Part shown: piece after piece, positions 34,682-38,816 of the stretch | Layout of the letters: every line of letters begins with the position of its first letter | Numbering within the stretch: position 1 is the stretch's first letter | Assembly: GCF_024502345.1 (NCBI RefSeq) | Contig: NZ_JALDNN010000001.1 | DNA: 64,000 bases | DNA from: Escherichia coli | GTDB taxonomy: Bacteria > Pseudomonadota > Gammaproteobacteria > Enterobacterales > Enterobacteriaceae | Direction: 5' to 3' (one strand) | The notes under the pieces: model-generated | The model's database searches: none | What the model was told of the DNA's origin: nothing | The model's input: the letters and a program-made list of their open reading frames with translations, nothing else | Program-made: the position numbers and the translations under genes

Positions 34682-36318
34682 GTTGGAGTCATTACCAGGG
34701 AAACCGCTCTTCGCTGATGCAGGCGTGGATTGATGATGGCGACACGTCTCTGCCGCCAGAAAAGATTCAGGTTCCTTTCATGTTAACGCCACCAGTAGTG
34801 AAAGTAGCGGCCAATTCTGGGCAACAAATAAAAATTAAAATCATGCCTAATAAATTACCCAGTAATAAGGAAAGTATTTTTTATCTTAATGTTCTGGATA
34901 TTCCACCGAATAGCCCAGAAGATGAAGGAAAGAATGCGTTAAAATTTGCCATGCAAAACAGAATCAAGTTGTTTTACCGACCTGCTGGTATTGCTCCGGT
35001 AAATAAAACGACTTTTAAAAAATTACGAGTGAGTCGTAGCGGTAATAACGTAGTCATAAAAAATGACTCGCCAAATTGGGTAACGATTTCTGATGTTAAG
35101 GCTAATAACGTCAAAGTGAATTATGAAACAATCATGATTGCACCACAAGAAAGTCAGAATGTCAGTGTAAAAAATAATAATGCGAATGGCTGGCAACTGA
35201 CAATTATCGATGATCACGGCAACTATATTAGTGACAAAATTTAATTGCAGGAGCTGCCTATGTTGAGAATGACCCCGCTTGCATCAGCAATAGTCGCGTT
35301 ATTGCTCGGCATTGAAGCACATGCAGCAGAAGAAACCTTTGACACCCATTTTATGATGGGAGGAATGAAAGGTGAGCAAGTAACAAATTTACGTCTTGAT
35401 GATAATCAGCCTTTACCTGGGCAGTACGACATTGATATTTATGTCAATAAACAATGGCGTGAAAAATATGAGATTATCGTCAAAGATAACCCACATGAAA
35501 CTTGCCTGACGCGTGAAATTGTAAAGCGGTTAGGTATAAATAGCGATAATTTTGCACGCGAAAATCAGTGTTTAACATTTGAGCAACTTGTTCAGGGCGG
35601 AAGCTACTCCTGGGATATTGGGATTTTTCGTTTGGATCTCGCTGTTCCGCAAGCCTGGGTTGAAGAGCTGGAAAATGGTTACGTTCCGCCAGAAAACTGG
35701 GAGCGGGGAATCAATGCGTTTTATACGTTTTATTACGTAAGTCAGTATTACAGTGACTATAAAGCCTCGGGCAATAGTAAGAGCACTTATGTGCGTTTTA
35801 ACAGTGGGCTAAATTTGCTGGGATAGCAGCTGCATTCAGATGCCAGTTTTAGCAAAACGGATAATAATCCTGGTGAGTGGAAAAGCAACACGCTGTATCT
35901 GGAGCATGGATTTTCTCAAATTCTCGGTACGCTGCGTATTGGTGATATGTACACCTCAGCCGATATATTTGATTCCGTTCGCTTCACCGGGGTTCGGTTA
36001 TTTCGTGATATGCAGATGTTGCCAAACTCGAAGCAAAATTTTACCCCACGGGTACAGGGGATTGCCCAGAGTAACGCGTTGGTAACTATTGAACAGAACG
36101 GTTTTGTCGTTTATCAGAAAGAGGTTCCACCAGGTCCGTTTTCGATTAGTGATTTGCAGTTAGCGGGCGGAGGGGCGGATCTTGATGTTAGTGTTAAGGA
36201 AGCCGATGGTTCTGTGACTACGTATCTGGTGCCTTATGCGGCAGTACCTAATATGCTGCAACCTGGTGTATCAAAATATGATTTTGCGGCAGGCCGTAGT
36301 CATATTGAAGGTGCGAGC

Positions 36319-37375
36319 GGCTTTGTTGAATAAATCGAACTTTTGCTGAGTTGAAGGATCAGATCACGTATCTTCCCGACAACGCAGACCGTTCCGTGGC
36401 AAAGCAAAAGTTCAAAATCACCAACTGGCCCACCTACAATAAAGCCCTCATCAACCGTGGCTCCATAACTTTCTGGCTGGATGATGAAGCTATTCAGGCC
36501 TGGTATGAGTCAGCAACACCTTCTTCACGAGGCAGACCTCAGCGCTATTCTGACCTTGCCATCACGACTGTGCTGGTCATTAAACGCGTATTCAGGCTGA
36601 CCCTGCGCGCTGCGCAGGGCTTTATTGATTCCATTTTTTCTCTGATGAACGTTCCGCTACGCTGCCCGGATTACAGCTGTGTCAGCAGGCGGGCAAAGTC
36701 GGTTAATGTCAGTTTCAAAACGCCCACCCGGGGTGAAATCGCACACCTGGTAATTGATTCCACCGGGCTGAAGGTCTTCGGTGAAGGCGAGTGGAAAGTC
36801 AAAAAGCATGGCCAGGAACGCCGCCGTATCTGGCGTAAGCTGCATCTCGCCGTTGACAGTAAAACACATGAAATCATCTGCGCTGACCTGTCGCTGAACA
36901 ACGTTACGGACTCAGAGGCCTTCCCCGGGTTAATCCGGCAAACCCACCGGAAAATCAGGTCAGCCGCCGCCGATGGCGCTTACGATACCCGGCTATGTCA
37001 CGATGAACTGCGGCGTAAGAAAATCAGCGCGCTTATCCCTCCCCGAAAAGGTGCGGGTTACTGGCCCGGTGAATATGCAGACCGTAACCGTGCAGTGGCT
37101 AATCAGCGAATGACCGGGAGTAATGCGCGGTGGAAATGGACAACAGATTACAACCGTCGCTCGATAGCGGAAACGGCGATGTACCGGGTAAAACAGCTGT
37201 TCGGGGGTTCACTGACACTGCGTGACTACGATGGTCAGGTTGCAGAGGCTATGGCCCTGGTACGAGCGCTGAACAAAATGACGAAAGCAGGTATGCCTGA
37301 AAGCGTGCGTATTGCCTGAAAACACAACCCGCTACGGGGGAGACTTACCCGAAATCTGATTTATTCAACAAAGCC
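36319..37375 (+). mobile_element. IS903-family element (1057 bp) with 9-bp TSD GGTGCGAGC
   Basis: terminal IRs GGCTTTGTTGAATAAATC ... GATTTATTCAACAAAGCC; identical 9-mers at 36310..36318 and 37376..37384. Confidence 0.9.
36351..37319 (+). CDS. IS903-family (IS5-superfamily) DDE transposase
   Basis: ORF inside the IS; true start codon uncertain (possibly internal GTG). Confidence 0.85.
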   Translation: MKDQITYLPDNADRSVAKQKFKITNWPTYNKALINRGSITFWLDDEAIQAWYESATPSSRGRPQRYSDLAITTVLVIKRVFRLTLRAAQGFIDSIFSLMNVPLRCPDYSCVSRRAKSVNVSFKTPTRGEIAHLVIDSTGLKVFGEGEWKVKKHGQERRRIWRKLHLAVDSKTHEIICADLSLNNVTDSEAFPGLIRQTHRKIRSAAADGAYDTRLCHDELRRKKISALIPPRKGAGYWPGEYADRNRAVANQRMTGSNARWKWTTDYNRRSIAETAMYRVKQLFGGSLTLRDYDGQVAEAMALVRALNKMTKAGMPESVRIA

Positions 37376-38816
37376 GGTGCGAGCAAGCAAAGTGATTTTG
37401 TCCAGGCCGGTTATCAGTATGGTTTTAATAATTTATTGACGCTGTATGGCGGCACGATGGTTGCTAATAATTACTATGCCTTTACCCTCGGAACAGGTTG
37501 GAACACGCGTATTGGCGCAATTTCAGTCGATGCAACTAAATCGCACAGTAAGCAAGACAATGGTGATGTGTTTGACGGACAAAGTTATCAAATTGCCTAT
37601 AACAAATTTTTGAGCCAAACATCAACACGTTTTGGTCTGGCGGCCTGGCGTTATTCGTCGCGTGATTACCGCACATTTAACGATTATGTGTGGGCAAATA
37701 ATAAAGATAATTATCGTCGTGATAAAAACGATGTCTATGATATTGCCGATTATTACCAGAATGATTTTGGTCGCAAAAATAGCTTTTCCGCCAATATGAG
37801 TCAGTCATTGCCAGAAGGCTGGGGATCTGTGTCATTAAGTACTTTATGGCGTGATTACTGGGGGCGAAGCGGCAGTAGTAAAGATTATCAACTGAGTTAT
37901 TCCAATAACTGGCGGCGGATAAGCTATACCCTCGCGGCAAGCCAGGCGTATGACGAGAACCACGCCGAAGAGAAACGCTTTAATATTTTTATATCGATTC
38001 CCTTTGACTGGGGCGATGACGTTACGACGCCGCGGCGGCAAATATATATGTCTAACTCAACGACCTTTGATGATCAGGGTTTTGCTTCAAACAATACCGG
38101 GTTATCGGGAACCGTTGGGAACCGCGATCAGTTTAACTATGGTATCAACTTGAGCCATCAACATCAGGGAAATGAAACGACAGCTGGGGCCAATTTGACT
38201 TGGACCGCACCGGCCGCAACAGTGAATGGCAGCTATAGTCAGTCGAGTACTTATCGACAGGTCGGAGCCAGTGTTTCAGGGGGACTGGTTGCCTGGTCTG
38301 GTGGCGTTAATCTGGCGAACCGTCTTTCCGAAACGTTTGCTGTGATGCATGCGCCGGGAATCAAAGATGCTTATGTCAATGGGCAAAAATATCGTACAAC
38401 AAACTGTAATGGTGTGGTGGTGTACGACGGACTGACACCTTATCGGGAAAATCACCTGATGATGGATGTGTCGCAAAGCGATAGCGAAACAGAATTACGC
38501 GGGAACCGTAAAATGACCGCCCCTTATCGCGGCGCGGTCGTTCTGGTTGATTTTGATACCGATCAGCGTAAGCCCTGGTTTATAAAAGCATTAAGATCCG
38601 ATGGACAGCCATTAACGTTTGGTTATGAAGTCAATGATATGCATGGTCATAACATTGGTGTTGTCGGCCAGGGCAGTCAGATATTTATTCGCACCAATGA
38701 AATACCGCCAGCGGTTAATGTGGCAATTGATAAGCAACAAGGGCTTTCATGCACAATCACCTTCGGTAAAGAGATTGATGAAAGTAAAAATTATATCTGT
38801 CGGTGAGAGGTGAAAT

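Follow-up and report, generated by a model that had tools for sequence, protein, structure and literature searches.

The stretch of Escherichia coli DNA analysed here, 64,000 nucleotides of contig NZ_JALDNN010000001.1 (assembly GCF_024502345.1) and called the window throughout, carries a chaperone-usher fimbrial operon, yehD-yehC-yehB-yehA, with three lesions: an amber codon and a copy of the insertion sequence (IS) IS903B in the usher gene yehB, and a copy of IS1 in the chaperone gene yehC. The initial annotation of this stretch had described yehB as inactivated twice, by an in-frame stop codon and by an IS903-family insertion; both lesions are confirmed here and both have been recovered in independent samples. 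That annotation missed the IS1 in yehC, the order in which amber and then IS903B arose, and the start codon of yehB at 35260.

The yeh operon and its usher gene

The usher gene is identified as yehB by its place between a yehC-type chaperone gene and a yehA-type adhesin gene, with metG and apbC on one side and rcnB on the other. Its 5' part has a yehB-annotated match in 5139 of 5426 complete E. coli genomes, the top matches being O157:H7-type alleles at 99.6%, and the gene shares 99.6-99.8% nucleotide identity, and the same 826-codon length, with the annotated intact yehB of O157:H7 and of MLI023K1. The latter, an E. coli from human stool in Mali with a genome of 4.62 Mb, is the nearest complete genome, 99.92-99.94% identical over window positions 24559-60343, and its yehD, yehC, yehB and yehA are all annotated as intact. 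The order in O157:H7 PV15-279 is metG, apbC, a DUF2574 gene (yehE), a fimbrial subunit, a chaperone, yehB, a fimbrial protein and rcnB. The window is colinear, gene by gene, with the O157:H7 and MLI023K1 annotations, its yehD-yehC-yehB-yehA genes running from apbC/yehE to rcnB in the position of a true yehB ortholog.

YehB belongs to the Yeh (gamma-4 clade) fimbriae, which are orthologous to the Stc operon of Salmonella and lie at the same locus, metG-apbC-yehE-yehDCBA-rcnB; the best NCBIfam match of the window chaperone is StcB, of the Stc system. The operon exists as two deeply diverged allele classes, with 328 complete genomes at least 99% identical to the 5' part of the window yehB and 4805 only 80-90% identical. 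The window allele falls in the minority "O157-type" class, which reaches beyond O157 itself and is also that of MLI023K1 and E308. Against the NCBIfam YehD model, whose cut-off is 136 bits, the YehD of this class reaches only 106.

The annotated start of yehB orthologs maps to the ATG at 35260 which, with a stop codon ending at 38806, gives a protein of 826 amino acids. The span proposed initially, 35245-38806, is thus right at its end, while its beginning was the mechanical TTG start of the open reading frame. In a scripted check, 35260-36318 joined to 37385-38806, that is, the gene with the insertion and one copy of its flanking duplication removed, came to 2481 nt, or 826 codons plus stop, just as the initial annotation had it, with the amber codon as the sole internal stop. 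The same check placed that TAG at codon 189 of the frame opened by the ATG, in the context NSGLNLLG*QLHSDA. The restored gene is equal in length to O157 yehB and differs from it at 8 nucleotides, one of them the change at 35825, and codon 189 is TGG in both of the closest intact alleles, those of O157:H7 and MLI023K1. Aligned with these, the TAG lies within the conserved usher frame, and the two fragments are in frame with each other once the IS is taken out.

Conservation of Trp189 was judged from an alignment with FimD, from an alignment of 146 ushers and from 12 YehB proteins. Tryptophan occupies the amber column in all 12 full-length YehB proteins, which span about 8% divergence, and in 140 of the 146 usher representatives, whose identity to YehB is only 30-42%; it is embedded in the motif G-x-N-x-G-x-W-R-L-R. 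In FimD, the usher of the type 1 pilus, the motif reads SGLNIGAWRLRD, and its Trp pairs with the Trp189 lost from the window gene. The suggestion that the TAG had replaced an usher-typical Trp, by TGG to TAG, therefore stands.

Pfam was run on an intact ortholog of the same length as the window gene and differing from it in 4 of 826 codons; it finds PapC_N at 26-161 (2e-34), Usher at 177-743 (2e-192) and PapC_C at 753-813 (9e-09), the domain architecture of an usher. Homology to ushers of solved structure is equally clear, with E values of 6e-111 to 4e-110 for FimD chains and 2e-52 for PapC. FimD (PDB 3RFZ, 6E14 and 4J3O) is homologous over residues 22-813 (E = 6e-111) and has the same Pfam architecture, but is only about 35-40% identical to YehB, serves a different fimbrial type and is intact and functional in reference strains. 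The window still holds the motif at the start of the barrel; its Trp codon, however, is TAG, which makes the locus a pseudogene of the FimD/PapC family. The frame across the full barrel is broken by the stop at codon 189 and again by the 1057-bp insertion after codon 353, and the window yehB is not a working member of the usher family. The stop alone falls 12 residues after the barrel domain begins, and costs the protein its pore, its plug and both C-terminal domains.

The insertion in yehB, reported initially as an IS903-family element of 1057 bp at exactly the limits found here, can be refined to IS903B. Its inverted repeats are identical at 18 of 18 positions (GGCTTTGTTGAATAAATC), and its size, these repeats and the 9-bp target duplication are those of IS903B. 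Over all 1057 bp it is 100% identical to annotated plasmid copies from Citrobacter, Salmonella and E. coli, and relatives of it are found on more than 5000 plasmids. Like other members of the IS903 group in the IS5 family, it encodes a single DDE transposase, and this is intact. The 307-residue product exactly matches the MULTISPECIES entry "IS5-like element IS903B family transposase", present on at least 1000 contigs; with the NCBIfam IS5 family model NF033579 (cut-off 140) it reaches 357.6 bits. Since the copy is identical in sequence to widespread ones, it is likely to be competent for transposition. What is particular about it is only the insertion site at codon 353/354, inside the barrel; no complete RefSeq E. 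coli genome has an insertion there. Beyond the left junction the yehB frame continues for four IS-encoded codons (GFVE) and ends at a TAA, 36331-36333. A search for an outward promoter at the right end of the element, one that might drive yehA, found promoter-like sites at a frequency not above that of shuffled sequence, with none at the IS end itself.

The chaperone gene is split as well. An IS1 lies in yehC after codon 45, flanked by a duplication, AGGGAAAC, of 8 bp (33921-33928 and 34697-34704), or of 9 bp with the terminal C included. It has the ends of an IS1, and both of its reading frames match the NCBIfam IS1 family transposase, at model positions 1-81 and 76-199. Removal of 768 + 8 bp restores a yehC of 675 nt whose protein is identical to that of O157. 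As compared with an intact Yeh system, then, the window has an usher pseudogene (W189amber plus IS903B) and a chaperone gene split by IS1. The split abolishes the chaperone, and the IS1 is likely to be polar on yehB. Table 1 gives the coordinates.

Table 1. Genes, gene fragments and lesions of the yeh operon in the window
Feature	Position	Strand	Remarks
yehD-type major fimbrial subunit gene	33164..33706	+	Intact, 180 aa (amino acids); full-length and ungapped vs. O157, 0 aa differences, 0 internal stops
yehC (periplasmic chaperone) 5' fragment, codons 1-45	33794..33928	+	100% identical to O157 yehC nt 1-135
IS1, 768 bp, in yehC	33929..34696	+	Orientation of the operon; insA 33984-34259, insB' 34178-34681; extra vs. 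O157 and MLI023K1
yehC 3' fragment, codons 46-224 + stop	34697..35244	+	Includes the duplicated 8 bp; NCBIfam StcB/fimbrial chaperone matches
yehB 5' fragment, codons 1-353	35260..36318	+	Signal peptide, PapC_N, first part of Usher barrel; aligns to O157:H7 yehB nt 1-1059, 99.6%
Amber TAG, codon 189	35824..35826	+	G to A at 35825, from TGG (Trp)
Target-site duplication, left copy, 9 bp	36310..36318	.	GGTGCGAGC; codons 351-353, G-A-S; single copy in empty-site alleles
IS903B (IS5 family), 1057 bp	36319..37375	+	Same orientation as yehB; 18-bp terminal inverted repeats 36319-36336 / 37358-37375
IS903B transposase gene	36396..37319	+	GTG start, TGA end, 307 aa, intact; exact protein match on record
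Target-site duplication, right copy, 9 bp	37376..37384	.	GGTGCGAGC; identical to left copy
yehB 3' fragment, codons 354-826 + stop	37385..38806	+	Remaining Usher barrel and PapC_C; ungapped to O157:H7 yehB nt 1051-2481, 99.7%
yehA-type fimbrial adhesin-like gene	38817..39851	+	Intact, 344 aa; 3' of broken usher; full-length and ungapped, no internal stop, 3 aa differences vs. O157

The lesions in other samples

A look-up of the exact 188-residue truncated protein retrieved 11 contigs with the amber allele, drawn from NCBI, Logan and ENA data. Four contigs, L002 (GCA_050022275.1), L003, L004 and L005, match the flanks of the window at 99.9-100%, carry the amber codon and have an empty IS903 site with a single GGTGCGAGC. 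Over the locus itself such independent assemblies are 100% identical to the window, save for a single mismatch in one of them; relatives with the amber but not the IS903B include GCA_050022275.1 and SRR24000611. The left IS903 junction of the window is shared only by L006 (SRR32878073) and one similar place, 2 contigs as against 11 with the amber. Because the amber occurs with an empty site in L002-L005, it is older than the IS903B insertion. The latter, recent and rare, entered a gene that was dead by then. L002 and L003 start within the right end of IS1, and their empty IS903 sites show that, in those two genomes at least, IS1 also preceded IS903B. Among complete RefSeq E. coli genomes neither the amber nor the IS903 junction was found, the best match to the 5' part of yehB being 99.6%. 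The right junction is untraceable in other samples, as the 456-residue reading frame downstream of it (37436-38803) has no exact match in the protein collection.

Retrieval of contigs with a 175-residue YehC fragment, made to order IS1 relative to the amber, gave other, unrelated nonsense alleles of yehC instead. These are of the same allele type: Q43* in L014 (2854-3528) and G44* with N45H in L013 (470-1144), the latter having an intact yehB of 826 amino acids. The query retrieves only lesions in codons 42-49, and their clustering near the IS1 site is an effect of ascertainment. The protein collection also holds several frameshifted N-terminal fragments of YehB.

One further contig, L008 (ERZ915402, from a human gut metagenome), carries the amber and, at its positions 860-865, joins an IS903 left end to yehB at about window position 35992. 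This junction lies some 326 bp upstream of the IS903 site in the window (36319) and has the same orientation; it represents either an IS903-mediated adjacent deletion starting from an allele of the window type or an independent second insertion.

Probable stepwise inactivation and its alternatives

We consider it very probable that the O157:H7-type yeh operon of this human-gut E. coli lineage was inactivated stepwise. The ancestor would have had an intact operon, as MLI023K1 (about 99.9% identical) still does. A G to A transition at 35825 would then have converted the codon for the conserved Trp189 of the usher to amber, leaving a product that could comprise at most the signal peptide and the N-terminal domain and would lack the pore, the plug and the C-terminal domains. 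The same lineage would also have acquired an IS1 by transposition into yehC, at codon 45. Later, in a small sub-lineage that includes the window genome, an IS903B identical to copies circulating on plasmids would have entered the dead yehB at codon 353/354, generating the 9-bp duplication. The three lesions, the ancestral states and the precedence of the amber over IS903B are shown by the alignments and contigs described above. The loss of function, the polarity of IS1 and IS903B on the genes downstream and the neutrality of the later lesions we infer from what is known of the chaperone-usher pathway.

In that pathway the subunits depend on a periplasmic chaperone to fold and on the usher pore to be polymerised in order and secreted. 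No Yeh fimbriae would be expected from this operon, in which yehC is split at codon 45 and yehB is cut short at codon 189 and again at 353; YehD and YehA, whose genes are intact, would lack both partners and presumably would not be folded, exported or polymerised. The second and third lesions would then have been selectively neutral, the operon being already dead and in any case poorly expressed. Yeh is a core-associated chaperone-usher fimbria of E. coli (Wurpel et al.) that is cryptic; it is intact in 92% of strains and disrupted in about 8% (PMC3559732), and in O157 Sakai Yeh fimbriae have been observed only upon artificial induction (PMC7098969).

Nothing contradicts the structural reading; three points qualify the wider account. 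The neutrality of the loss is an assumption. Every informative amber contig ends in IS1, so that these contigs do not fix the order of IS1 and the amber. Finally, three G to A changes on the + strand (35391, 35462 and 35825, the amber included) arose in the window lineage within 435 bp, more than the local background would predict.

The restored yehB differs from that of MLI023K1 at five positions. With O157 as outgroup, four changes are derived in the window, all of them G:C to A:T: 35391 (synonymous), 35462 (G68E), 35825 (W189*) and 38200 (synonymous). As an observation apart, the 708 bp from 35118 to 35825 contain 7 differences from MLI023K1, and the remaining 32 kb contain 24 (Poisson P of about 1e-6). 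Polarised by O157, four of the seven are derived in MLI023K1 and three in the window. Hypermutation as the source of this cluster was considered and dropped, three window-derived changes being too few for such a claim.

Decay in this part of the chromosome is local. A full-length, ungapped comparison was possible for 37 neighbouring genes, and 35 of them are free of internal stops; yehE too is intact, and the IS content of the 64-kb window amounts to one IS1 and one IS903B; since 35 of 37 comparable neighbours are free of stops, genome-wide or Shigella-style erosion is not the pattern. A Shigella origin, which IS1 and the pseudogenes had brought to mind, was rejected, given only two IS copies in 64 kb, intact gat and most other genes, and a human-stool commensal as nearest relative.

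The strongest of the rival readings is that loss of Yeh was selected and not neutral. In the human gut the fimbria would be costly, or would be targeted by immunity, by phage or by grazers, and its several lesions would reflect convergent adaptation. Three lesions in one operon, set against the 35 of 37 comparable neighbours with no internal stop, would fit this view, as would the independent yehC nonsense alleles of the same allele type and the frameshifted YehB fragments. However, once a first knockout has occurred, further lesions are neutral and to be expected, and the three together amount to at most one selective event. The yehC cases are biased by a query confined to eight codons, and Yeh is intact in most surveyed strains and in the nearest relative. 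We therefore regard selected loss as unlikely. Slightly more doubtful still is the broader proposal that human-gut E. coli with the O157-type allele lose Yeh repeatedly and adaptively, so that the lesions, the yehC nonsense alleles and the L008 junction would reflect either convergent selection or a hot spot for IS903 target choice or adjacent deletion.

The other readings fare much worse. That IS903B was the primary inactivation, with the amber acquired later in a dead gene, follows a pattern common in IS-disrupted genes, and the window alone could not order the two events. It is effectively refuted, however, by the four independent contigs, 99.9-100% identical over the locus, in which the amber stands beside an empty, unduplicated target site, given that precise excision restoring a single 9-bp copy is very rare, and by the excess of contigs with the amber over those with the junction.

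That the lesions are artefactual, the TAG a sequencing error or the IS misassembled, draws on nothing more specific than the general worry attached to a single-base stop or a repeated element, and is negligibly probable in view of the amber's recurrence in NCBI, Logan and ENA samples, the independent IS junction in SRR32878073 and a perfect 9-bp duplication, the signature of real transposition.

It is just as improbable that the usher is still made, by read-through or suppression of the amber or from complementing split fragments, and for the native protein this is excluded. The TAG is directly followed by C, a comparatively leaky context in E. coli. A ribosome reading through would, however, meet IS903B 164 codons on and terminate after its four IS-encoded residues, and no tRNA gene of any kind, and hence no suppressor tRNA, was found in the window. 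Split fragments would lack the chaperone, which is also destroyed, and we know of no assembly route for a 24-strand barrel cut inside the barrel. Replacement of broken ushers by those of other operons has been speculated upon in the literature (PMC6854044).

Neighbouring features and meaning of the locus

The yehA-type product bears the NCBIfam label "putative fimbrial-like adhesin". Between yehD and yehC a perfect, GC-rich 10-bp hairpin (TGGCCGCCAT-GAAT-ATGGCGGCCA) lies at 33747-33770; placed after the major-subunit gene, it may act as an attenuator or as an mRNA-stabilising element.

The two exceptions among the 37 neighbours, yehM and yegX, each have a CAA to TAA stop. In yegX (glycoside hydrolase family 25; 45762-46580, + strand) the in-frame TAA is codon 95 (46044-46046), CAA in O157; it is probably ancestral to the window and MLI023K1, where yegX is likewise annotated as a pseudogene with an internal stop. 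In yehM (DUF5682; 17899-20178, - strand) the TAA is codon 96 (19891-19893), again CAA in O157. This gene is annotated as intact in MLI023K1, and in O157 its internal stop is at another codon, 510; it is a further gene decaying independently in several lineages. Inside yehI, a gene already carrying a frameshift in MLI023K1, some 1.4 kb are missing relative to that genome (L011 38571-39984); the breakpoint, at about 24559-24569, falls within a short, imperfect repeat (…AACG(G/C)TGCCAG…).

Between yehL and yehK are two tandem OrzO-P antitoxin RNAs of the zorO-orzO type I toxin-antitoxin system (21389-21464 and 21999-22072, - strand), set within a 300-nt direct repeat that is 86% identical (21451-21750 and 22059-22358). 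Similarity to MLI023K1 stops at 60343, past yegR. Beyond that point the window has a site-specific integrase at 60423-61436 (- strand), 99.5% identical to the integrase of a P2-like prophage in the same place in O157 strain ERL04-3476; MLI023K1 has yegQ in that place.

The window yehB is a conventional, multiply inactivated pseudogene in a cryptic fimbrial operon, of a kind already known. In Shigella flexneri 2457T, yehC and yehA are pseudogenes and fimD is disrupted by an IS (PMC6854044). The decay of Shigella fimbriae is of the same kind, with chaperone-usher operons still in place and ISs, truncations and stops in their chaperone and usher genes. In 2457T, however, it is yehC and yehA that are affected rather than yehB, and the window genome is not Shigella-like. 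The present analysis adds the IS1 in yehC, identifies the element in yehB precisely as IS903B, and supplies the ancestral state along with the order in which the events took place.

For annotation this means a single interrupted yehB pseudogene at 35260-38806 in place of several short open reading frames, with yehC likewise a pseudogene, and in fimbrial typing the strain should be scored as Yeh-negative. The ordered lesions, amber and then IS903B, together with their exact junctions, are clonal markers for this gut lineage. Beyond annotation the locus is of little importance; it is a further case of the known pattern in which point mutations and IS insertions break down the cryptic chaperone-usher operons of E. 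coli.

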